From contig RDOB01000012.1 in the NCBI GenBank assembly GCA_011364965.1, forward strand, positions 1-48,263: 48,263 bases of DNA. Direction: 5' to 3'. The translations under genes and the position numbers were made by a program. This DNA is from Candidatus Heimdallarchaeota archaeon (GTDB lineage Archaea > Asgardarchaeota > Heimdallarchaeia > Hodarchaeales > Hodarchaeaceae). This document shows, piece after piece, positions 9,796 through 25,616 of this stretch (position 1 is its first letter; every line of letters begins with the position of its first letter). The notes under the pieces were generated by a model. The model made no database searches and was not told where the DNA came from. It saw only the letters and a list, made by a program, of their open reading frames with translations.

Positions 9796-10725
9796 TTAAC
9801 CTTCGGTTATACTAGTTAGTTGAGAACTGAATGCTAAAACTTTATTATAAAGAGACGGGATAGGTTCATTTTTCTCTCTTAAACGATCCTTAGGGAATCC
9901 AAAGAATAAAGCAAGTCCGTTTTCCATAAAACGGATAAAGAAGACTCTACGTTCTGACTCTAATAATATTGTTGTTGCTGACTCACCATCGGAGTGTGCT
10001 AGACGCTTAACAACTGCATCAAAAAATTCTTGAACCTCAGAGAGTGATATATGATCGAATTTTGAGATATTCTCAACTTTGGTCAATGGTGCTCCTTCTT
10101 TTGTAAAAATTTGGGCCATATCAGCCGCGTTGTGCCGTATAAATGTTTCTAGTAATGGTCGTAAGGTTTTACGAGCACCACTAGCTTCTGCATATACATC
10201 ACCCATTGCTTTGAAAATGGAGTCCGAGAAAACAGATGTTGTATCATATTTTATGTCTTTTTTAACTCCTTGAAGAAGATATTCACTAATTGTTTTTCTA
10301 ACCTCCGATTTGAGATTTTTCGGAACTAAATCAGCTTTATGTTGAAAAATAAACACTTTAGCGTCTGGACTAAACTGCTCAAGTTTCTTCAAAGAGAGAT
10401 CTAAGTAATATTTAGCCCGTGATATATCAGTAATCTTAATAGAATCGACAACGAAAACTAAAGCTTTCACTCCAGAGAAAATGAATTCTGACAATTCTCC
10501 CGTAAATCGATCTAAAAATGCAGTTTGCCCGCCTAAATCGAAAATTGTAAGTTCAGTGCCTGCAATTACCTTCTGTTTTCTTTCATAATCGATTGTTGCC
10601 TCATATCTTTCCCCTTTTTTTGGTAATTTTCCTTCTATTACAACTTTAATGATTGTAGATTTTCCTGATTCCGCTAATCCTAATAAAAGAATTTTACTAG
10701 TTTTTTTACGTGCTAAATAAGACAT
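9796..10725 (-). CDS. Rag/Gtr1-like small GTPase with C-terminal roadblock-like domain
   Basis: G1 GLAESGKS, G2 ATID, G3 DLGGQ, G4 HKAD (His as in Rag/Gtr), G5 TSV; C-terminal alpha-beta-beta-alpha-beta-beta-beta-alpha pattern (AQIFTKEGAP). ATG at 10725 follows GAGGA. Confidence 0.88.
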   Translation of the reverse strand: MSYLARKKTSKILLLGLAESGKSTIIKVVIEGKLPKKGERYEATIDYERKQKVIAGTELTIFDLGGQTAFLDRFTGELSEFIFSGVKALVFVVDSIKITDISRAKYYLDLSLKKLEQFSPDAKVFIFQHKADLVPKNLKSEVRKTISEYLLQGVKKDIKYDTTSVFSDSIFKAMGDVYAEASGARKTLRPLLETFIRHNAADMAQIFTKEGAPLTKVENISKFDHISLSEVQEFFDAVVKRLAHSDGESATTILLESERRVFFIRFMENGLALFFGFPKDRLREKNEPIPSLYNKVLAFSSQLTSITEG

Positions 10726-10741
10726 TATAGTCAATCCTCAT

Positions 10742-11596
10742 TTACATACTTATCTCTCTTATGATACCTAATTTTTCTAATATCATTTCCCTTTCAAGTG
10801 GATCAGTTACATCGCGAATAGTGAATTCATTTTTAAAACGTGTTGAATTGAGTGATGAGGCACAGCTTCCAGCAAGAAACATTAGCTTCTGAAGACGTTC
10901 GTCTCTCAATTTAATGACAAAGATTCTTTTTACGACTCCATTCACCAGAATTAAGACTGAGTAAGGCGTTAAATCATCACTTGGTTCTAAACTAATTAAT
11001 TCTCCTTCTTCATCTATTGTGTAAAAACTTAATCCTGCTTTTTCAGGAATATAATACGGTTCTTCAACTATTTCTGCTTCCTCATCCAGTTCTTGAGGTA
11101 GATTTTTCATTTTATCTAGAATTGGCCTCATAATAGCTGGGTCAGAGAGATCTTGTTCTGCTTTTATACCTATTGTAGCCTCTTTTAACTCTTTTTCGAT
11201 AGAAGAATGTAACCTGAAGATTTTATTTCGATCACTTGATCGGAATATTAACCACACTGTGGATTCTCGTCCATATTCATCAATCCTAACATCCTTTGTT
11301 TTTATCGGTGACACAGTAAAAGACATCGCCAAAGCTTCTAAATCTGGGGAATCAGGGATTGGAATTGATCCATGGAGACGATAATGTTGTTTTTCGGCAA
11401 CAGTTCCAGCTCCCATGGACAAAATTGTCATGCCAATAACGCTTAGTTTAACAGTTGTATCTTCTGATATGGGGGAGATATTTAGAAGTGGATAAGGCCC
11501 CATATCCGTCATCGTGGTTGTTAACAGACCAATAAACACAATATTCACCATTAAATTAAGAAGAAATGAAATCTCGAACGAAAATATTTTGTTCAA
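10742..11596 (-). CDS. Putative longin/uDENN-like domain fused to gelsolin-like domain (likely start ~11551)
   Basis: N-term IGLLTTTMTDMGPYPL...HGSIPIP...ALAMSF...DVR....GR.TVWLIF; C-term FYTIDEEGEL...LTPYSVLILVN...RIFVI...MFLAGSCASSLN. Both are by-eye pattern matches. Confidence 0.6.
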   Translation of the reverse strand: MNKIFSFEISFLLNLMVNIVFIGLLTTTMTDMGPYPLLNISPISEDTTVKLSVIGMTILSMGAGTVAEKQHYRLHGSIPIPDSPDLEALAMSFTVSPIKTKDVRIDEYGRESTVWLIFRSSDRNKIFRLHSSIEKELKEATIGIKAEQDLSDPAIMRPILDKMKNLPQELDEEAEIVEEPYYIPEKAGLSFYTIDEEGELISLEPSDDLTPYSVLILVNGVVKRIFVIKLRDERLQKLMFLAGSCASSLNSTRFKNEFTIRDVTDPLEREMILEKLGIIREISM

Positions 11597-11622
11597 AATT
11601 TATTTCGCATATCAAGTTTTTA

Positions 11623-12561
11623 TTACTTTAGTTTTGAAATAATACTTTCTGCGATTTCTAGGCAATTCTCTTCAATAATTCTGAAAGGTTCCTTAAATAA
11701 GGTGAAAGCCGAATCTCGTCCTATTAAAATTAATTTCAAGTCTTCATTTAACATATGAGTGACCATAAGGAAATCTTCAAGTCTAAAAACATTTGTATTG
11801 ACACAAGATGAAAGCTCAAATGCATTGCTCTGGTCTAACATGCGAATGATTTGAGGACCGATTTTTTCTTGCCAGGAATTACTTTTCCCAACAGCAAGTA
11901 AAATGTCATTGCTTAAAGAAAGGAGGAATGCCCCAGCAAATTGAAGAGAGTTCATTTTTTGTGTTAAAATATCTGTGATTGCATCCGTTTGAGATCTTTT
12001 TAATGTTACTGACGAGATTGTCTGTTTAGTTAGCGCTGTAAAATAATCTAATGATTTATTGATAATCTGAGTGAAAACCAAGTTTGTTAAACGCTGTTCA
12101 TCAGAACCTTTTAAGGAGACAATGTAAGTAGGAATTTGGCCTGGGTATATTTCTTGCATTTGTGCTAACGCGTTATTTCTTAGCTTATTTCGCTCAACAT
12201 CATTTGTGATCAGATGACCTCGGTTAAGAATCAATACAACTTGGTAATTTTTATTAAATTTAGAAATTTCAGTAGTAATTTGACTAAAATCGGAGATCAT
12301 GTCATCTAAACGCTGATATGAAATATCATGAATATAAATTAAAGTATTTAATTTCATTAATATCTTTTCTTTTATAACAGGGAAAATACTTCTCAAATAC
12401 TCCTCTTCTACTTTAGAAGAGGATCTCAACCAGTCGTAATATACCACATTTTGGAAAATTCTAAGATTGGGTTCCGCTCTACCCAGTTTCATAAGCTGAT
12501 TAAAAAGTAGGTCTTTTCCTGAATGAGATAGGCCTGCAATGGCAATAAGGTTTTGTCGCAA
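11623..12561 (-). CDS. Degenerate Rag-like (pseudo)GTPase with C-terminal roadblock-like domain
   Basis: G1-like GLSHSGKD; switch region shortened, no DxxG; G4 position NRGH; LIYIHD strand retained; C-term FAGAFLLSLSNDILL. Confidence 0.7.
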   Translation of the reverse strand: MRQNLIAIAGLSHSGKDLLFNQLMKLGRAEPNLRIFQNVVYYDWLRSSSKVEEEYLRSIFPVIKEKILMKLNTLIYIHDISYQRLDDMISDFSQITTEISKFNKNYQVVLILNRGHLITNDVERNKLRNNALAQMQEIYPGQIPTYIVSLKGSDEQRLTNLVFTQIINKSLDYFTALTKQTISSVTLKRSQTDAITDILTQKMNSLQFAGAFLLSLSNDILLAVGKSNSWQEKIGPQIIRMLDQSNAFELSSCVNTNVFRLEDFLMVTHMLNEDLKLILIGRDSAFTLFKEPFRIIEENCLEIAESIISKLK

Positions 12562-12571
12562 AATGATTCCT

Positions 12572-13576
12572 CTAGGCTGGAGTTTGAAGCATAGATTCTA
12601 ACTGTGATGATAATAGTTTAACTGTTTCCTCAATTTCCTGAAGATTTCTTGATTCTAGCATTGCTTTATCTTCAGTTGAAAATAATACAAGAAGATAATG
12701 CGGGGGAATCACCGATTTATACATCATGCACGCCCCCATGCGTTTAATTTCAGATTTTGATGAAGGGATCATTCTAAGGTCATTGACTTTATCGAGAAGA
12801 TTTATAAGCTGCTCGATCTCAATATTTTCAACATCTGATGCTTGAATGCGAAAATCGGGATCCTCTAAAGAGATCAAGAGAACTTCTTCTAATCTATTCA
12901 TAAATTTTAGTGCATGGAGTAATTGTTGAATTGGACGAAGTCGTAATCTCTTTTGAATAGCTTCTAGGTCTTCTTCTTTCTCAATTCGTTCGACTTCGGG
13001 AATTACTTCACTAGCTTCTGCTGTTATTCGTTTGAAAGCTTCATGAATGGAATTATCGTAAATAGAAGTTTGTAAAAATGTTATATTCTTGGTTTTCACT
13101 GCATCCTGAAACATCTCCATCAGAAATTCCATTCGATCTGCACGTTGTGTTAAATCAGGCAAAAGATCAGTTTTATGGAGTAAAACATAGACAGCAGGCT
13201 GGATATCAGACATTTCTTCAAGTCTGGTTACCCCTTCAACAAATGCTTTCAAAGAGGCAGGAAATTTATCCGGGGTGGAGATATCACAAATGAATACAAG
13301 AACTGCAACATTGCTAAAGATAAAAGAACTCATACTACTTAAGAATCGTTTTAAAAATACCTCCTGTCCTCCTAAATCCATCACTGTTACAGATTCATCT
13401 GCTACTTGTTCTATTTGCCGTTCATAATTTAAAGTTGCCGCGTAATTTTGGGTTTCCTCTGGAGCTTTTCCTCCAAATACGACATCCCGAATTGATGTTT
13501 TCCCAGCTTGAGACAACCCTAATAAAATGATTTTGCGGGACGTCTGGGTCTTGAGTTGTTTCAGATAATGACTCAT
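12572..13576 (-). CDS. RagA/Gtr1-like small GTPase with C-terminal roadblock-like domain
   Basis: KIILLGLSQAGKTSIRDVVF, ATLNYE, DLGGQEVFL, FSNVAVLVF, LLHKTDL, TSIYDNSIHEAF closely parallel RagA/Gtr1 motifs. Confidence 0.9.
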   Translation of the reverse strand: MSHYLKQLKTQTSRKIILLGLSQAGKTSIRDVVFGGKAPEETQNYAATLNYERQIEQVADESVTVMDLGGQEVFLKRFLSSMSSFIFSNVAVLVFICDISTPDKFPASLKAFVEGVTRLEEMSDIQPAVYVLLHKTDLLPDLTQRADRMEFLMEMFQDAVKTKNITFLQTSIYDNSIHEAFKRITAEASEVIPEVERIEKEEDLEAIQKRLRLRPIQQLLHALKFMNRLEEVLLISLEDPDFRIQASDVENIEIEQLINLLDKVNDLRMIPSSKSEIKRMGACMMYKSVIPPHYLLVLFSTEDKAMLESRNLQEIEETVKLLSSQLESMLQTPA

Positions 13577-17228: not shown

Positions 17229-18134
17229 ATGATGAAGGTTAGTTTGGTTGGTTTAAGTGGTTGTGGAAAGACATCCATCTATTCAACTACTCTTGGAGGT
17301 ATGACACCTTCAGAGGTCGAACATTTGGGCCCTACGGTAATGTATGAAGTAAAGAGTCATAACTACCTTGGATTACAAATCTCACTCTGGGACTTCGGAG
17401 GACAGGAAGAATACCGTAAAAATTACTTGGAAACTCCAAAGCTATTAGCAAATACGAATCTCTTAATCTTCATCTTGGATTTGCATAACCCCGAAGACTA
17501 TGATAAGGCCGATAGCTATTTCAATGATGTTTATACTTCCATAAAGAAAAGTGGCGGATCCCCTACGGTTTTTATCTTTTATCACAAGTTTGATACAGAG
17601 AAGTATCCCGAAGATAAGCTTAACCAGAATCTAACACGCGCTAAAGAATTACCTACTGTGAAAAAGCTAAAACCTCGTTCTTTTGTTACATCTATCTTTA
17701 GACAAGAGGAATTAAGTGAAATATTTAGACAATTACTAATCTCTGATTTTGATGAGTTAAAAAAGGGTGTTGAGCAAGCTCAAGAGTACCTTCTGAAATT
17801 AAAATCAAAAATAATCGTGAGTGATGTAAATGGGAATGTAGTTACCCATAATATCAAGGGTTTTGCCACTGGAATTCAATTAAGAGAGGATTTACGAGAT
17901 TATATCCTTGCTTGCAACGTATTAAGAGAGAATTTCCTTTCTAGCGAATCAGCTTTTTTCACAGCACAATCAGACAAAAAAGATTTAAAATTGCACATTT
18001 TTAATTACGTTTTATCGGTGCTAATTATGCAGGACGAAGGAGCACCCACTGATCCGAAAGAAGATATTGATAATTTACTAAAAGAAATGAAAATCTTTTC
18101 AGATCTCATCATTGATGCAAGTAAAGAAACTTAG
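17229..18134 (+). CDS. Rag/Gtr-like small GTPase with C-terminal roadblock-like domain
   Basis: GLSGCGKT, GPTVMYE, WDFGGQ, HKFD, TSIF; C-term KIIVSDVNGNVV. Confidence 0.87.
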   Translation: MMKVSLVGLSGCGKTSIYSTTLGGMTPSEVEHLGPTVMYEVKSHNYLGLQISLWDFGGQEEYRKNYLETPKLLANTNLLIFILDLHNPEDYDKADSYFNDVYTSIKKSGGSPTVFIFYHKFDTEKYPEDKLNQNLTRAKELPTVKKLKPRSFVTSIFRQEELSEIFRQLLISDFDELKKGVEQAQEYLLKLKSKIIVSDVNGNVVTHNIKGFATGIQLREDLRDYILACNVLRENFLSSESAFFTAQSDKKDLKLHIFNYVLSVLIMQDEGAPTDPKEDIDNLLKEMKIFSDLIIDASKET

Positions 18135-18163: not shown

Positions 18164-19645
18164 TCATTTCTGTTCTTCGTTAATTAATTTCGCTAGTTCA
18201 ATTTTCCTAGTCAAGATTTTCCCCTGATTATCTGAAATTGTCATAATGTACTCACTATCATCACCTAATCTGGGAAATTCGAAATCTAATGCCTCTGCTG
18301 GGAACCATTCGCGTACAGCTGTTTCCCAAGTATGAGATTCAAATAATTCCCCTGCTAACAATGTTATGCGAACTTGAATACGCTCTAACACTTTTCCGCT
18401 ACGATTAATGATAGTAGTTTGAATATAACGTTCATTTGGTAAGAGTTGGATATTCTGAACTCGGACTATCTGCTTTCTAATTACACCAACTTTTTCTTCA
18501 ACCAAAGTTTCTTTTTCAGGTATTGATGGCCTACCTACAGAGAGCTCTGAAGGCATTTGAAAAGCATAAGATCTTCTTCGATTGACCGTATACAATTGAA
18601 CTTTTTTCAAATTAGCTAATCTTAACACTGGTTTTAGATCTTTAATGGATATAGGTATAAGTTCTATGTAACCACTGTCTGCAGCGTCCTGTAAAATTTC
18701 TAATCCTAATCCTGTCCGCGCTAAAACAGTATTATATCCATCTGGCGCGCCTACAGATCCAACAGATATATCTGCATTTTCACTGGTGAAATCAACGCAG
18801 TAATGGCAGGAACTAGCCCGTAATCGATCCATATCATGAACTGAATGGCTGATGGTTTCACCTTCCTCCTGAATCATGTGGAATTTTCCTTTAGAAATTG
18901 TCATTTTGGAAATTTTTCCAATTGGAACTTTATCAACATCTTCTATAAAATCACGGAGTCTTTCATATGAAAATGCGTCCATACAGAAAAGACCGATCTT
19001 TAAAACAGAACTTCTCATGAAAAGCCGTACAAGACCATAGGGGGATTTTTGCATTTTATCAACAGCATCAATATTGCACGGACACCCCACAAAAGCAATT
19101 GAATGAAGGCCAGATTTAATCCCTTGTAATAATTTTCCTACTGCTTGAGATTGACTATAAATCGATCCAGATCCCTTAAGAACATCCTCGATTTTTGAAG
19201 TTAGAATGGGTTTAGGTTTCCAAGGATCCTCTTCGTCATGTGTAGTCAGAATAGCTCCGTCAACCATTTTCTCTTTTAATAAGTACACTAGTAAACTTGT
19301 TATTACACCTCCGTCCTGTCCCTTTACTTCTGGAAGAAGGGATTTTGCTCTAAAAGTATCAATAAAATTACCTAGAAGTTGAGGTACAGTCGTTTTTGTT
19401 TTAGGACATTGATGAACACACACTCCGCAGGCCGTACATTTTCCTACAAGTTGAGGGCGATCATTAACCATTTCTATAGCATTATCACTGCATGATGCTA
19501 CACAAGCGCCACAAGCACTGCATAAACCAGCATCAATCACCTCTTTTTTGAGCGTGGCAAATTTTACATCTTTTGAGTCTTTTAATCTGCGCTTCGATAA
19601 TCGGTAGCTTATTAATGAGGGAGTATCGTCATTGAGTTCAGCCAT
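18164..19645 (-). CDS. Coenzyme F420 hydrogenase/dehydrogenase beta-subunit (FrhB/FdhB/FpoF) family protein with 2x[4Fe-4S] and extra C-terminal domain X
   Basis: CSACGACVASC, CTACGVCVHQCP, QDGGVITSLL, VGCPC, IGLFC, CHYCVDFT..ADISVGSVG; about 100 extra C-terminal residues. Confidence 0.9.
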   Translation of the reverse strand: MAELNDDTPSLISYRLSKRRLKDSKDVKFATLKKEVIDAGLCSACGACVASCSDNAIEMVNDRPQLVGKCTACGVCVHQCPKTKTTVPQLLGNFIDTFRAKSLLPEVKGQDGGVITSLLVYLLKEKMVDGAILTTHDEEDPWKPKPILTSKIEDVLKGSGSIYSQSQAVGKLLQGIKSGLHSIAFVGCPCNIDAVDKMQKSPYGLVRLFMRSSVLKIGLFCMDAFSYERLRDFIEDVDKVPIGKISKMTISKGKFHMIQEEGETISHSVHDMDRLRASSCHYCVDFTSENADISVGSVGAPDGYNTVLARTGLGLEILQDAADSGYIELIPISIKDLKPVLRLANLKKVQLYTVNRRRSYAFQMPSELSVGRPSIPEKETLVEEKVGVIRKQIVRVQNIQLLPNERYIQTTIINRSGKVLERIQVRITLLAGELFESHTWETAVREWFPAEALDFEFPRLGDDSEYIMTISDNQGKILTRKIELAKLINEEQK

Positions 19646-19661
19646 ATCCTTTACCTCTGTG

Positions 19662-20081
19662 CTAATTTGATTTAGATAGTTTACGGGGTAATTCTAAGGT
19701 ATTAAAAGCAGCAATGATATCATAAGATGTTATAATTCCTGACAACTCTGCTGTTTCCTCATTGATAACTGGCAGTCTCTTAATCTTATGGATATGCATG
19801 AGCATTAATGCTTCTTTAATTAACTCTTCTTCCGAAACTGTGATCAATTCTCTTTCAACAATCTCCTTTGCTTTTACTTTACAAGGATTTTGACAGTCTA
19901 AAACAACTCGTTCAACAATATCTCTTTTAGTAATGATTCCTATTGGTTTTCCTTTTTCCATAACCAAAACTGATCCTATCTTATGATCAATGATCAGCTT
20001 TGCAGCCATCGCAATGTCATCATCGACATCTACAGAAATTATATTTGGAGTCATTACATCTTTTACTCTAGTCTCATTCAA
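19662..20081 (-). CDS. Stand-alone CBS-pair protein
   Basis: VKDVMTPNIISV, IGSVLV..GIITKRDI, IKRLPV..GIITSYDII. Confidence 0.92.
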   Translation of the reverse strand: MNETRVKDVMTPNIISVDVDDDIAMAAKLIIDHKIGSVLVMEKGKPIGIITKRDIVERVVLDCQNPCKVKAKEIVERELITVSEEELIKEALMLMHIHKIKRLPVINEETAELSGIITSYDIIAAFNTLELPRKLSKSN

Positions 20082-20091
20082 TTTATCCGAC

Positions 20092-21075
20092 TCAACCTAA
20101 TATTCTTCGAATTTTAATTGTTTCATGATCATCTTCGATCTTCAGAAAGTAAATAGTTCCTGGATCAGGCTTGGGTTTAAATTTAATCGATACCTGTTCC
20201 TCTGGTTCCCAAGTTTTAATTTTAAAAACCTCTAAATCATGTCCAAAAAACCCTTGAGATTCGTAAACTCTCAATAAAACATTATTTATTGGTTTTGAAT
20301 TAGTATTCTTCGCTGTGACTTCAATGTGCGAGTTATTATGCTTAATTTCAACTATTTTTACTCTCTTCGGTTTAATGCTCAAGTTTACCTCAGATTTTTT
20401 TACAGGAGTAGTATCTATTCTCGAAGAGGGGATAACAAATCTCCGTTTCTCTAATTTAGCCTCAGTTCCTCTACTCGCTTCAGATGATGAGTCTTCTTCT
20501 GAAAATCTGGGGAGAGTATAATTTAGTTTTTCTAAAGAAACTTTAGGAATAAGTGAGTCACATAAGGATTTTAGTTCATTTTCAACATGATCAGCAAACC
20601 TGTGAATTTCCTCTTCAATTGGCTCTTTTTCTTCAAGTAATAAACTTTTTTCCACTAAGTAACATAACTTCTCTCCCAGATTCCCTGTTATCCGTAATTT
20701 CAATTCATATAAGATTTCTTGAGCGATAAAGGAAACTCTTGATGGAGAACGAATGATTAATATAAAACGTTCCATCCTCCATTTGAGAGATTCCATTCCC
20801 GAGCGTTTCTTTGTCCTTCTGCTCTTGCATTGTAATAATGTTGCACTATAGTTAATTCCTTCCATTTCTAGATCCATATGATCAAATTTTTCAGTTTCAA
20901 TGAATTTATCTTGATGCCACCAGATTGGATGTATTTTTATAATCCGCTGTTCATCTTCATTTGCTGCCAAATCGGGTGGATAAGTGAATAATGGGACATG
21001 TCCTCGTTGTTCGTCATAGAAATATAAAAAGAAACCGTAAGAATTTCCTAATTGATTATTTTTCTGTTCACTCAT
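20092..21075 (-). CDS. Putative longin/uDENN-like protein with C-terminal domain X
   Basis: GFFLYFYDEQRGHVPLFTYP resembles the uDENN/NPR2-type first hairpin; C-terminus is similar to neighbouring genes. Confidence 0.6.
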   Translation of the reverse strand: MSEQKNNQLGNSYGFFLYFYDEQRGHVPLFTYPPDLAANEDEQRIIKIHPIWWHQDKFIETEKFDHMDLEMEGINYSATLLQCKSRRTKKRSGMESLKWRMERFILIIRSPSRVSFIAQEILYELKLRITGNLGEKLCYLVEKSLLLEEKEPIEEEIHRFADHVENELKSLCDSLIPKVSLEKLNYTLPRFSEEDSSSEASRGTEAKLEKRRFVIPSSRIDTTPVKKSEVNLSIKPKRVKIVEIKHNNSHIEVTAKNTNSKPINNVLLRVYESQGFFGHDLEVFKIKTWEPEEQVSIKFKPKPDPGTIYFLKIEDDHETIKIRRILG

Positions 21076-21182
21076 CCTAAATGTAATCCTAGTCCTTTGT
21101 TTAAATCAAACAAAGCTAATTTTTTATTTAATCTCATTTTTAATAAGATTACGACGTGAAATATATCTTAAGTACTAGTAAT

Positions 21183-22142
21183 TCAAGTGTTATTAATTTC
21201 AATCGATTTAATTGCAATAGTCGAATTTCGACTACTAATTTTTATTAAATAAGTCTCACTCTCAGATCCCTTATCAAATTCTAATATTAAATCTTCTTTC
21301 ATTGGCCAGTTATCGAGAGTTTCTTCCCAAATAGTTTCTCCAAAAAAAGCTGAGCTCTTAGAAACAACAATTTTCACATCAAATAGATCCTCATTTGGAT
21401 TTTCTAGCACTACTAGCAAATTTTGGGGGTTCTCATCGAGTTCGTGTACTCTTAATTTTATCCTGTCTTTAAAAAAATCTTTAGCACATACTCCAGCATC
21501 TGATGGAGCAAAATCAGTCACCGAACTAGGAATGATGGGTTTTACAGTAGTCTGGACTTTTTTCATTAAATTCTCTTTAAATATCTGCCATTCAGCTATC
21601 AGATTGCGTTCTATCTCTCGAATTTTAGGTTGAAGTTCTGTGAACGTTCTTTTCATAACTGGATTCGACTCGAGCTGTTTGCTTTTGTAAATTAGGGGAA
21701 AATCATGACAAAATTTTTCTTCTAATTGAGTTTTTAGGTTGTAAATGGCATCAGAATCAATGGGATTGTTATCCTTCCATAGTTTCAATACAATCCCATA
21801 CACAACGTCATTTAAGGCCGATTGTTCTTGCTGGAGAGAGAAATGCAATTGAAAAGCGGAATACACAAATTCGGAAAATTTCAGGTCAATACGGATAGGA
21901 ATATCATCTAATTTCCATATACAATGGGTTTTAAGGATGCTTACTTCATTTTGGTTCTCGCTAAGAGAGCTTGGAAAAGCGAATAGAACTTGGAGTCCTT
22001 TAATCGCGTCAAAAGAACATAGAAAAAAACCAATAACTCCTACATTGGAATCTAGGCTATTGTTTTTATGTTCCAATTGGAAATTTACATCAAAAAAAGG
22101 ATCGACATCCATCGTATTCCCTAACTTAAGGTGATTAGACAA
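21183..22142 (-). CDS. Putative longin/uDENN-like protein with C-terminal domain X, paralog of the previous gene (likely ATG at 22112)
   Basis: GFFLCSFDAIKGLQVLFAFP; shares K.H.IW and DL....YSA motifs with 20092..21075. Confidence 0.6.
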   Translation of the reverse strand: MSNHLKLGNTMDVDPFFDVNFQLEHKNNSLDSNVGVIGFFLCSFDAIKGLQVLFAFPSSLSENQNEVSILKTHCIWKLDDIPIRIDLKFSEFVYSAFQLHFSLQQEQSALNDVVYGIVLKLWKDNNPIDSDAIYNLKTQLEEKFCHDFPLIYKSKQLESNPVMKRTFTELQPKIREIERNLIAEWQIFKENLMKKVQTTVKPIIPSSVTDFAPSDAGVCAKDFFKDRIKLRVHELDENPQNLLVVLENPNEDLFDVKIVVSKSSAFFGETIWEETLDNWPMKEDLILEFDKGSESETYLIKISSRNSTIAIKSIEINNT

Positions 22143-22337: not shown

Positions 22338-24191
22338 TTGGAGATAAATAACTTGACTGAAACTATTTGGGATGTCATTGTTGTTGGGGGAGGGCCTTCA
22401 GGCCTATCGTGTGCTATCCGTGCAGCAGAGATGGGATTACATGTCTTAGTTTTAGAAGCTCGGTCTGGTACAGAAACTGCAACAGCTGGAAGTATGTCTG
22501 TAGATGGATATCCAGGTTTCTTTAGTATTACTCGACAAGAATTGCTGGATAAGATGACTAAACAAGCGAAGTATCACGCTACTATAAAATATGCCGAGAA
22601 AGTGAGTAAACTTGAACTTAATGGTGATATTAAGCGGGTTACAACTCACGTCTCCCGAGGAGAGTTTTTTACAGAAGAAATCGTTTATCAAGGAAGAACT
22701 GTTCTAATCGCCACAGGATTCCTTCCTGGTAAATTAGGTGTCCCCGGGGAGAAAAAATACACCAATAAAGGGCTCTATTATTCAATTCCTTCAGCAGATA
22801 TAACAGATAAGAAAATTGCAATTATTGGTCATACATCTTGGACAGTACGAAATGTTCTCCATTGTGACGCGGGTGGAGCTGATGTAATTTTACTCACAAT
22901 CAAAGATAAAATAGAAGCGCATCCAGCTTTACTACGTAGGTTAAATGAAAGCTTTGTTAAGGTGATGTACAACCATGAAACAATAGCCTTTGAAGGCACT
23001 AGTCACTTAAAGAAGGTTATTGTCAGAAGAGTCAGTGATGGTGAAAGAATTCCTATTTCAGTTAATATGGCGATTATTGTTAGTAGTAAAAATCGTGATC
23101 GTGCGTTATTTTTAGATGCAGGGTTGGCAATTACTCCACAGGGAACCGTCATTGTGAATTCAGCTAATCAAGATACCAATATCCCTGGAGTATTTGCAGC
23201 TGGAAGCGCAACAAGAGGAGATTCCATCGTGGGAGTTAGTGCTGCTGAAGGTCAAAAAGCGGCCATGGAAATTTCTCGGTATATTAATATGCAAACTGAA
23301 GAGTTTAAGGATATAAATATACCTAGAAAGAAAGATTTTACTGTGGATCGATTTAAGGAGGGCCGTACTGTTATTCTTGAAAAAGAGGACTTATCTCCTG
23401 AAATAATTAAATGGGTGGTTAAAGCTCCACTTATTGCAAAAAAAGTTGAACCGGGACAATTTATAATACTCCGAATTACTACATATAGCGAAAGAATCCC
23501 ATTAACAGTTGCAGATTTTGATAGAGAGGCAGGGACAATCACTCTCATCTTTCAAAAAATTGGTAAGAGTACACGTGAAATGGGGCTTTTAAATGCTGGA
23601 GATCACATTTTAAACATGCTAGGACCGCTAGGCCAACCTGTGGAAATAAAAAAATGGGGTACAGTTGCAGTATTAGGAGGAGGATGTGGAGTGGCTCCAA
23701 TTTTGCCAAAAACAAAAGCTTTGAAAGATGCAGGTAATTATATCATAAGTATTATATCCGCTCGGTCTGGTCCTCTGCTAATATGCCGTGCTGACATGGA
23801 GGGCCCGAGTGATGAACTATATATTGCTACAGATGATGGAACTTTAGGATATCACGGTTTTGGCATAGATATATTAGAAAAACTTCTCAAAGAAGGCAGA
23901 AAAATAGACCATGTTGTCACCGTCGGTCCTATTCCTATGATGAGAGCGGTATCTGATCTTACGAAGAAATATAAAATACCTACTATTGTTAGTTTAGCCC
24001 CAATAATGATTGATGGTTCTGGAATGTGTGGAGCTTGTAGGGTTCGAGTGGGAAATGAAGTGAAGTTTGCTTGTGTTGATGGTCCGAATTTTGATGGTCA
24101 TCTAGTAGATTTCAAAGAACTTGCAACGCGTTCAAGAGCGTATTTATATGAGGAGAAGATCTCGTTGGAAAAAATGGCGCGAGATCGATAA
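22338..24191 (+). CDS. Fusion: thioredoxin-reductase-like FAD domain + NfnA/SudB (FAD/NAD-binding, [2Fe-2S]) subunit
   Basis: N-term DVIVVGGGPSG, LIATG, TNIPGVFAAG; C-term PGQFIILR..ERIPLT, GPLG, GGGCG, TDDG, VGPIPMM, DGSGMCGACRV..CVDGP. Confidence 0.9.
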   Translation: MEINNLTETIWDVIVVGGGPSGLSCAIRAAEMGLHVLVLEARSGTETATAGSMSVDGYPGFFSITRQELLDKMTKQAKYHATIKYAEKVSKLELNGDIKRVTTHVSRGEFFTEEIVYQGRTVLIATGFLPGKLGVPGEKKYTNKGLYYSIPSADITDKKIAIIGHTSWTVRNVLHCDAGGADVILLTIKDKIEAHPALLRRLNESFVKVMYNHETIAFEGTSHLKKVIVRRVSDGERIPISVNMAIIVSSKNRDRALFLDAGLAITPQGTVIVNSANQDTNIPGVFAAGSATRGDSIVGVSAAEGQKAAMEISRYINMQTEEFKDINIPRKKDFTVDRFKEGRTVILEKEDLSPEIIKWVVKAPLIAKKVEPGQFIILRITTYSERIPLTVADFDREAGTITLIFQKIGKSTREMGLLNAGDHILNMLGPLGQPVEIKKWGTVAVLGGGCGVAPILPKTKALKDAGNYIISIISARSGPLLICRADMEGPSDELYIATDDGTLGYHGFGIDILEKLLKEGRKIDHVVTVGPIPMMRAVSDLTKKYKIPTIVSLAPIMIDGSGMCGACRVRVGNEVKFACVDGPNFDGHLVDFKELATRSRAYLYEEKISLEKMARDR

Positions 24192-24194
24192 GAG

Positions 24195-25616
24195 GTGCTT
24201 AAGATGAGCGATAGCGATCGAAAAGCTAAATTGAAAAAAGAAAGAGTTCATATGGGAGTACAAGACCCTACAGAAAGAATTAGAAATTTTAATGAAGTGG
24301 CACTTGGATTAACCAAAGAACAAGCAATTTTCGAAGCATCTCGGTGTTTACAATGCAAAAAACCTCGTTGTATTATTGGCTGTCCCGTAAGTGTATCAAT
24401 AAAAGATTTTATTGCCCTATTGAAGGAAGGAGATGTTAATGGAGCAAAAGAAATTATTCTGAGTACAAATAGTTTACCTGCTATAACTGGAAGAGTATGT
24501 CCTCAAGAAAATCAATGTCAAGAATATTGTATTCATCCTAATGCGATTTCTATTGGTGCGTTGGAACGATATGTAGCAGATCATGGGGAACGCCCTATAA
24601 GTAAAAAATATGCAAGTTTAGGGACAAAAGTAGCCATTATTGGTTCAGGCCCTTCAGGTTTGACATGTGCTGCCGAACTAGCCATGAAAGGTCATGAAGT
24701 AATGATTTACGAGGCTTTACATGAATATGGTGGCGTTTTGACATATGGGATTCCTGAATTTAGGATGCCCAAGCAAATCGTAAATGAAGAGGTTGAATAT
24801 GTCAGAAGCTTAGGAGTTAAATTTGAGAAAGACATTCTTATTGGCAGAACAATAACCATAAATGAATTACTTACCGAATATAACTTTAATGCGATTTATG
24901 TTGCCTCAGGCGCGGGAGCTCCTAATTTCATGGGTATTCCAGGAGAAAGTTTAAATGGGGTGTTTTCTGCAAATGAATTTTTAACACGCGTGAATTTACT
25001 TAGAGGGGATGGTTTTCCAGACTTTGATACTCCAGTGACAGTAGGTGAAAAAGTTGCTGTTATAGGGGCAGGAAATGTAGCTATGGATTGTGCTCGGACT
25101 GCTCTTCGTTTAGGTGCAAGAGAAGTTGATATCATTTATCGCCGATCTGAAGGGGAAATTCCTGCGCGATTAGAGGAAATAATACATGCTAAAGAGGAGG
25201 GGGTTGTTTTAGGAGAACTTACTGCTCCACTAGAAATGCTGGGAAATCCTAAAGGTAATGTAGTCGGTTTAAAGTGTATAAAAATGACCTTAGGAGAAAA
25301 AGACGAATCAGGTCGGAGACGGCCTATTCCTGTTCCCAACTCCGAGTTTATTTTCCCTGTTGATACTGTAATTATTGCTATTGGGCAGCAACCTAATCAA
25401 TTAATAGCTCGTACCACGGCAGGTCTAGAAACAACTAAATGGGGAACTTTTGTACACGATCCTGAGACTGGAGCGACCTCTCGTGAGCGAATATTCTGTG
25501 GAGGTGATGTCGCTACGGGTGCAGCTACAGTTATCCTCGCAATGGAAGCAGGTAGGAAATCAGCAAAAGCTATTCACGAGATGATCTGTAAAAAAGACTT
25601 AAATTCTTCATCTTAG
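24195..25616 (+). CDS. sudA: NfnB/SudA large subunit (GltD-like NADPH-dependent flavo-iron-sulfur protein)
   Basis: EASRCLQC..CIIGCPV, GRVCPQENQC, GSGPSG, YGIPEFR, GAGNVAMD, YRR, GGD..TGAATVILAM; directly follows a SudB/NfnA domain. Confidence 0.88.
   Translation: MLKMSDSDRKAKLKKERVHMGVQDPTERIRNFNEVALGLTKEQAIFEASRCLQCKKPRCIIGCPVSVSIKDFIALLKEGDVNGAKEIILSTNSLPAITGRVCPQENQCQEYCIHPNAISIGALERYVADHGERPISKKYASLGTKVAIIGSGPSGLTCAAELAMKGHEVMIYEALHEYGGVLTYGIPEFRMPKQIVNEEVEYVRSLGVKFEKDILIGRTITINELLTEYNFNAIYVASGAGAPNFMGIPGESLNGVFSANEFLTRVNLLRGDGFPDFDTPVTVGEKVAVIGAGNVAMDCARTALRLGAREVDIIYRRSEGEIPARLEEIIHAKEEGVVLGELTAPLEMLGNPKGNVVGLKCIKMTLGEKDESGRRRPIPVPNSEFIFPVDTVIIAIGQQPNQLIARTTAGLETTKWGTFVHDPETGATSRERIFCGGDVATGAATVILAMEAGRKSAKAIHEMICKKDLNSSS

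Follow-up and report, generated by a model that had tools for sequence, protein, structure and literature searches.

The window analyzed here is a stretch of 48,263 nt from contig RDOB01000012.1 of Candidatus Heimdallarchaeota archaeon (assembly GCA_011364965.1), a member of the Hodarchaeales. It contains a cluster of four co-oriented genes on the minus strand (18164 to 22142), three of which encode proteins that end in the same domain, here called domain X. The carriers of X are an FrhB-like redox protein and two longin proteins, the fourth gene encodes a CBS protein, and the gene for a Rag/Gtr-type GTPase converges on the cluster from the other strand. X is a new, narrow sequence family inside a very common fold. 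We infer a binding role of X from gene order, phyletic pattern, gene fusions and folds, and we slightly favor the reading, which is based on comparative sequence analysis, that X is a module-private docking domain that would gather the proteins of the module around one dedicated Rag-type GTPase.

The genes of the cluster follow one another in the order P0003, P0002, P0004 and P0001, with spacings of 107 nt, 10 nt, and 16 nt, and the positions of their open reading frames (ORFs) agree with those given in an earlier note on this DNA. X comprises residues 394-483 of the FrhB-like protein P0001 (18197..18466; this and all further coordinates within the cluster are on the minus strand), as delimited by AlphaFold2, hhalign, and a hidden Markov model (HMM). 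In the longin protein P0002 it spans residues 239-326 (20098..20361; AlphaFold2 strands and hhalign), and in the second longin protein P0003 residues 219-316 in ORF numbering (21195..21488; hhalign and an HMM match with an E-value of 1.2e-29). These limits are close to those of the earlier note, which had proposed that the three C-termini share one domain. In BLASTP comparisons the tail of P0001 matched P0002 (E 5e-7) and P0003 (E 2e-5); the match between the tails of P0002 and P0003 was not significant, and the link between them runs through the FrhB-like protein. Family profiles of the tails were built from 18 (FrhB-X), 64 (P0002), and 56 (P0003) homologues. Their comparison with hhalign yielded 96.2% for FrhB-X and P0002-X (E 2.3e-9), 97.1% for P0002-X and P0003-X (E 5e-11), and 89.6% for FrhB-X and P0003-X (E 1.9e-6), in contrast to less than 1% in the control comparisons of X with either N-terminal domain. 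The proposal of a shared domain is thus borne out.

An HMM search with the tails had also been proposed in the earlier note. The search covered all ORFs with a length of 60 aa or more, 8367 in number, of the genome (2.97 Mb, 87% complete). With leave-one-family-out HMMs the other two proteins were the only significant matches (E 1e-10 to 1e-4), the next values being at least 0.27. For example, the HMM made from the two longin tails gave E-values of 1.3e-10 for the FrhB tail and 0.31 for the ORF ranked next. The merged HMM of X detected exactly three copies in the genome, all of them within this operon. Because the results of hhalign, the leave-one-out HMMs, and the merged HMM agree, we conclude from these comparisons that the homology of the three C-termini is real and far beyond chance.

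An AlphaFold2 model of the FrhB tail (fragment 385-493), calculated with the merged alignment, has a pLDDT of 88.7 and contains seven strands, at positions 10-99 of the fragment, followed by a short C-terminal helix (residues 484-492 of the protein, 18170-18196). The tail of P0002 is predicted to form the same seven-strand sandwich. According to these models X is an Ig-like beta-sandwich of about 90 residues, as the earlier note had suggested, and the structural matches agree with the models. Foldseek and VIA-align returned long, flat lists of Ig-like sandwiches with Z-scores of 8-9.7, none of which stands out. The lists include the C-terminal domain of transglutaminase (Z 9.7), accessory domains of GH2 and GH3, DUF3244, domain 3 of HAP2, MG domains of alpha-2-macroglobulin, FlaF/FlaG, and Asf1. 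The more specific suggestion that X resembles an adaptin appendage is not supported. Two BBSome chains, 6vbu_9 (Z 8.7, 81 aligned residues, rmsd 2.4) and 6vbu_1 (Z 8.3), the aligned regions of which we take to be GAE domains, share their scores with many domains of the GH2, transglutaminase, and HAP2 types, and the similarity of X to GAE or adaptin ears is indistinguishable from that to dozens of unrelated Ig-like domains.

At the sequence level X is equally hard to place. A Pfam search with 136 X sequences gave no convincing match; the most frequent weak one was Por_Secre_tail (18 members, best E 0.0031), and the CARDB model matched none of the 136 sequences. A search of PDB sequences with X returned nothing usable (best E 1.9), and NCBIfam searches with the whole proteins found no named family for X. 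A profile search of 1.84 billion representative proteins yielded only 72 matches, which comprise longin-X proteins, FrhB-X proteins, a 641-aa fusion of longin, X, and four CBS domains, and a weak tail of large repeat proteins (E 1e-7 to 1e-3) with the Pfam labels CARDB, NPCBM_assoc, PTHB1_GAE, HYDIN/ASH, and Cep192. X has the seven-strand sandwich in common with CARDB, NPCBM-associated (NEW3), and ASH-type Ig-like repeats, including the GAE ears of the BBSome. It occurs, however, not in a secreted array of repeats but once per carrier, at the C-terminus of cytoplasmic enzymes and regulators.

The first carrier, P0001 (493 aa; 18164..19645), is a stand-alone iron-sulfur flavoprotein of the FpoF/FrhB type and consists of a 2x[4Fe-4S] ferredoxin domain, a core of FrhB_FdhB_N and FrhB_FdhB_C, a basic linker, and X. 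The Pfam matches are strong, with 6.9e-41 and 140.1 bits for FrhB_FdhB_C (cut-off 23.3) and 3.2e-21 and 75.7 bits for FrhB_FdhB_N (cut-off 22), accompanied by matches to Fer4 families. Solved FrhB-like chains of the PDB align to residues 31-349 of P0001. Since chains that consist of the single module end near residue 349, the last 145 residues or so are regarded as an add-on. The earlier note was therefore right that FrhB-family proteins normally end before such a tail. P0001 is the sole PF04432 gene product of the genome, and its 18 orthologues (471-496 aa) have a mean column identity of 81%. It scores below the cut-offs of the NCBIfam equivalogs TIGR03289, NF040616, and NF006808 (FrhB, 193.7 versus 331.5; FpoF, 157.9 versus 475 and 158.3 versus 444), and because it falls below every FrhB and FpoF equivalog cut-off it is assigned to a separate subfamily. 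P0001 shares with the FpoF/FrhB family the ferredoxin domain, the FrhB_FdhB_N/C core, and full-length alignment to solved FrhB-like chains. It differs from that family in the lack of a nearby partner (hydrogenase, Fpo, or formate dehydrogenase), in the tail of about 145 aa with X, and in its position beside a Rag GTPase. The genome contains a CofH gene above the cut-off and two CofE genes, and therefore F420 is probably made by this organism.

The second carrier, P0002 (327 aa; 20092..21075), comprises a longin domain (residues 12-186; 20518-21042), a disordered linker, and X. Pfam and NCBIfam returned no match for it, and Pfam none for P0003; a profile of the full-length longin-X proteins was also compared with PDB sequences and produced coiled-coil noise only. 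The AlphaFold2 model of P0002 has the order beta-beta-alpha-beta-beta-beta-alpha-alpha-alpha, followed by a low-pLDDT linker (residues 187-233) and the seven-strand sandwich. In the N-terminal domain, where pLDDT is mostly 80-95, strands are predicted at residues 14-21, 25-32, 67-71, 74-84, and 101-111, and helices at 34-60, 112-133, 137-149, and 155-175. The structural matches of this domain in VIA are headed by 6nzd_H of the folliculin complex (Z 10.2, 141 aligned residues) and 8fw5_B of GATOR1 (Z 10.1), followed by Sec22 and a chain of the SEA complex (both Z 9.9) and then, at Z-scores of 9 and above, by VAMP7, AP-3 sigma, sedlin, and a solved Lokiarchaeal longin. As the top matches are tied, the structure reveals a longin but not which kind of longin. 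The earlier note had called the two proteins longin/uDENN-like, and only the first half of this label has held. No cDENN or dDENN follows the longin domain in the AlphaFold2 model of P0002, only the linker and X, and there is no Pfam DENN match. Because a DENN core is lacking, uDENN is a misnomer.

The third carrier, P0003, is encoded by a 319-aa ORF (21183..22142) with a longin domain at roughly residues 33-192 (ORF numbering; 21567-22046), recognized by its profile match to the N-terminal domain of P0002, and with X. The ORF opens at the TTG at 22142. Its Met-11 corresponds to the first residue of all 56 homologues, which have about 310 aa and start with MNIDPFF or MDVDPFF. Therefore, the start is probably the ATG at 22112, and the probable gene is 21183..22112. 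In a profile comparison the N-terminal domains of P0003 and P0002 matched with 98.1% (E 1.4e-13), and by sequence the two proteins are paralogues over their whole length. The NCBI locus tags of both families are consecutive in many metagenome-assembled genomes.

A difference between the two paralogues is found in an Arg/Lys-rich loop of P0002 (residues 85-104; 20764..20823), which family conservation marks as a candidate catalytic (arginine-finger) loop. In 65 members of the P0002 family the residues R87, K89, R91, G93, M94, K98, W99, E102, R103, and F104, which lie in the loop between strands 4 and 5 or beside it, are conserved to at least 90%. Members of the P0003 family have a short, unrelated loop at that place, without the conserved arginines. 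This asymmetry is as expected of a GTPase-activating protein (GAP) heterodimer like FLCN-FNIP or NPRL2-NPRL3, and a GAP role is predicted by this analogy.

The linker of P0002 is otherwise disordered and variable, and contains a conserved k-L-R-F-s-I-P motif at residues 209-216 (20428-20451), possibly a linear motif for binding. The FrhB core is followed by a similar F-Q-I/M-P-S. As a general motif upstream of X, F-x-I-P-S was rejected, since it is not kept in other Asgard families or carriers.

The gene between FrhB-X and the longin genes, P0004 (139 aa; 19662..20081), encodes a CBS pair, as the earlier note had recognized (Pfam CBS 2.6e-27, 95.4 bits, two stretches). A CBS gene is part of the same cluster at seven further loci (L005, L006, L011, L012, L013, L016, and L021), and genomes of the Helarchaeota type encode a fusion in which longin-X is followed by four CBS domains (P0170, L016). 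The existence of this fusion ties the CBS protein to the longin-X protein.

The earlier note had called for a synteny check, and gene order is indeed conserved well beyond this genome. The most constant neighbor is a Rag-type GTPase that was missing from that note's finding. In the window this is P0005 (301 aa; 17229..18134, plus strand), which is convergent on the FrhB-X gene, with the stop codons 29 nt apart. Residues 3-202 match Gtr1_RagA of Pfam (PF04670; 2.7e-22, 79.8 bits, cut-off 22), and among PDB sequences the best matches are two entries deposited under the name 'GTP-binding protein' (8yl2 and 8zla), followed by RagA and Gtr1. In full-length alignments P0005 has 45-47% identity to the Rags beside FrhB-X in other Asgard families, compared with 26-31% over about 120 aa to the Rag paralogues in the window. 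By sequence it belongs to a distinct Rag orthogroup. Elsewhere in the window, a separate operon on the minus strand (9796-13576) encodes two Rag-like GTPases, one Rag-like protein, and a 284-aa protein, and none of these products carries X.

The distribution of both components was determined in a phylum scan of 400 Asgard genomes, with a threshold of E 1e-60 or better for the P0005-type Rag. X was detected in 180 genomes, three copies being the commonest number. The genus is represented by 21 other genomes, each of which has X; it is also found in almost every genome of the families f13-f17, f20 (130 of 135), and f21, and is absent from most other families. The P0005-type Rag was found in 150 genomes, every one of them in an X-bearing family. 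Families with both are f1, f13-f17, f20, and f21, most others have neither, and f9, f18, and one f4 genome have X without this Rag. FrhB-X lies at most 1.4 kb from the P0005-type Rag in 29 of the 32 genomes with both coordinates listed (the exceptions being G065, G125, and G126), a count that, like those of co-occurrence, is descriptive and without a statistical test because the genomes are related.

The layout around this pair varies in a restricted way. Both the closest and the most distant FrhB-X orthologues of the protein search (L005 and L006) stand in the order longin-X, longin-X, CBS, FrhB-X, and convergent Rag. In the families f13, f14, f17, and f20 a unit on one strand consists of FrhB-X, Rag, and an arrestin-like protein of about 390 aa with X at its C-terminus. 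The match of this protein to Arrestin_C is weak (0.0038), but its family is well conserved. In most cases the unit comes after CBS and one longin-X, or after longin-X with four fused CBS domains (L013, L016, L018, L019, L021, and L007), and one further locus (L011) has the same gene set in shuffled order with four X carriers. A search of the present genome, which is 87% complete, for the arrestin-like N-terminal part found none (best E 0.82). In the Hodarchaeales the second longin-X appears to stand where other lineages have arrestin-X, so that there are again three X domains.

The most informative variant occurs within the genus itself. In about ten congeners the third X is found not on FrhB but at the C-terminus of a GltD/NfnB-like protein of 581-588 aa (Fer4_20 and Pyr_redox_2). 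In one of them (G063; L012, 1122-7665) the operon comprises genes for Rag, NuoE-like, NuoF-like, NuoG/formate-dehydrogenase-like, NfnA-like, and NfnB-X proteins, and the NfnB-X operon converges on CBS, longin-X, and longin-X at the same locus as FrhB-X elsewhere. The NfnB-borne X scores best with the profile of FrhB-type X (63 bits versus 45 and 37), and two NfnB-X genomes, which are 91-93% complete, contain no FrhB-family gene. Since NfnB-X replaces FrhB-X at the same locus, the conserved item is a redox enzyme bearing X and not FrhB itself. We regard this swap as the strongest comparative argument for X as a putative functional docking tag.

Several further features of these loci were observed. 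The NuoEFG/NfnAB operon in L012 looks like a GTPase-linked complex of the flavin-based electron-bifurcating type. In the window, the region 22338-25616 (plus strand), which is divergent from the longin-X genes, encodes a 617-aa fusion of TrxR-like and NfnA/DHODB-type parts and then a 473-aa NfnB/GltD-like protein without X; such a pair is present at the same position in L006 and L012 and may belong to a wider neighborhood. Longin-X and FrhB-X are separated by a large gene in family f14, where it encodes a 682-aa protein like a C25 (gingipain-type) peptidase (L013:9062-11107), and in family f13, where it is an 890-aa ORF (L021:10141-12810). A 450-aa protein of family f16 with a C-terminal X (P0186, G125:C63:5919-6176), encoded about 4 kb from a Rag orthologue, may be a further type of carrier; its N-terminus has no Pfam match at E 0.001 or better. 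FrhB-X stands alone in L009, L020, and G069/G070, with no Rag orthologue, longin-X, or arrestin-X nearby. Its neighbors in L009 are MarR/TrmB-type regulators, and G069 and G070 have a single X copy each.

If X is a docking domain, X might bind X, or each X might bind one common partner such as a Rag dimer. X would join the redox enzyme and the longin pair, or elsewhere longin and arrestin, to the Rag, and the longin pair would regulate the hydrolysis of GTP by the Rag in the manner of FLCN-FNIP or NPRL2-NPRL3. The GTPase could thereby be coupled to the redox state of F420, ferredoxin, or NAD(P)H, and the CBS protein could add a metabolite input (adenylate or another CBS ligand). A prediction of the complex of P0002, P0003, and the FrhB-X tail, the latter as the scored partner, gave a score of 0.00 without controls, which is evidence neither for nor against binding. 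In its most complete form, this reading describes a redox- and energy-sensing Asgard Rag switch, in which the three X domains would assemble a flavoenzyme, a longin pair (or longin and arrestin), and a CBS sensor on one Rag, and redox state and adenylate charge would set its nucleotide state. We regard this full version as tentative and more doubtful than the docking role as such.

A number of observations weigh against docking on a Rag. The matches of the P0002 longin to FLCN and NPRL are tied with those to longins of SNAREs, adaptors, and TRAPP. GAP-type longins such as FLCN, NPRL2, SMCR8, and C9orf72 have a GP motif at the loop before strand 2, with an arginine finger next to it in space; the motif also marks some Asgard longins (PMC12290439). 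Its glycine is invariant in both families of the module (G25 of P0002), whereas the position of the proline is taken by His in P0002 and its homologues and by Leu in those of P0003. The co-occurrence counts overstate their support, because genomes of one phylum are not independent. In family f20 longin-X is often encoded 10-55 kb from the trio of FrhB-X, Rag, and arrestin-X. FrhB-X lacks a neighboring Rag in family f9, at L009, and in two members of this genus (G069/G070), which implies that X does something for FrhB on its own. Lastly, N, F, W, F, Y, and K, which are conserved in X, look like the core of the sandwich and point to no interface.

The last two points are also what would be seen if X were a passive structural appendage, i.e., a stabilizer, a spacer, or an oligomer cap, which had spread among neighboring genes by local duplication and recombination, and the fold itself, a most generic Ig-like sandwich with match lists as flat as those described above, would suit such a part well. 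Its presence on several proteins would then point to common descent within a cluster and not to a common role in binding. Nevertheless, three or four unrelated carriers have retained X in several Asgard families, with three copies per genome as a rule, and no other ORF of this genome contains it. Moreover, X has moved from FrhB to the NfnB-like protein exactly where the redox operon was replaced, and a neutral appendage is not expected to track a module so closely. We thus consider a passive role rather unlikely.

It is also conceivable that the cluster is chiefly metabolic, with FrhB-X or NfnB-X, the CBS protein, and the longins as subunits or assembly factors of a soluble redox enzyme, and the Rag-type protein as a GTPase for assembly or metallocentre insertion instead of a signaling switch. 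The redox genes in the neighborhood, i.e., the TrxR-like/NfnA fusion and NfnB at 22338-25616 with similar genes in L006 and L012, and the NuoEFG-NfnAB operon of congeners, which is headed by the Rag gene, would fit this explanation. However, the GTPase belongs to the Rag/Gtr family according to both Pfam and PDB sequence matches, and to our knowledge this is not a family that acts in metallocentre insertion. The longin fold is known from GTPase regulators or adaptors and is not known from redox subunits, and in other lineages an arrestin-fold X protein joins the set. A purely metabolic cluster is therefore judged improbable. Least probable of all, and to be given little weight, is that X is a sensor that binds a small ligand or lipid in a pocket between its sheets, as in PDE-delta and RhoGDI, and reads a common metabolite or a modified GTPase tail: Foldseek does list 1ksj_B (PDE-delta) and 2jhz_A (RhoGDI) with a TM-score of 0.5 by query and E of about 1e-3, but these matches are no better than those to dozens of unrelated sandwiches and lie outside the top 50 VIA rows, and this likeness was rejected.

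The docking reading can be compared with the Rag systems of eukaryotes. Asgard archaea encode many longin proteins and Rag-like GTPases. The latter have been published, and the regulator of a given GTPase can rarely be deduced from the order of genes (PMC10933270). NPRL2-like longins have been reported to be abundant in Asgard archaea (bioRxiv 10.1101/2020.10.19.343400), and FLCN/SMCR8-type longins with the GP motif and the arginine finger have been described in them (PMC12290439). Like Rag/Gtr with FLCN-FNIP, or with NPRL2-NPRL3 of GATOR1/SEACIT, the module contains a Rag/Gtr-family GTPase and two paralogous longins. FLCN, a GATOR1 chain, and a SEA-complex chain are among the top structural matches of P0002, and the arginine loop in P0002 only recalls the division into one catalytic and one non-catalytic subunit. 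In contrast to the eukaryotic longin GAPs, the module is without a DENN module, DEPDC5, the NPRL2-specific C-terminal domain, the Pro of the GP motif, and the context of TOR kinase, and its longins, for which the GAP role is a prediction, end in an Ig-like domain that is also present on a redox enzyme and elsewhere on an arrestin-like protein. The earlier note knew of no described system with this layout, and the papers that we could search likewise contained no description of a Rag/longin linkage to FrhB- or NfnB-type enzymes, CBS, and an arrestin-fold protein via a shared domain.

One Rag orthogroup with fixed companions that are marked by a private domain yields cognate candidates for that GTPase. 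The exchange of FrhB-X for NfnB-X within one genus represents a natural experiment, which suggests that the module needs the X tail on a redox enzyme and not a particular enzyme. The link to F420- or NAD(P)H-type redox enzymes and to CBS suggests what an ancestral Rag-type switch may have sensed before TOR. If the docking reading is true, the module would be a prokaryotic forerunner of nutrient sensing by Rag-GATOR1/FLCN, and X would represent a new class of module-private assembly domain.

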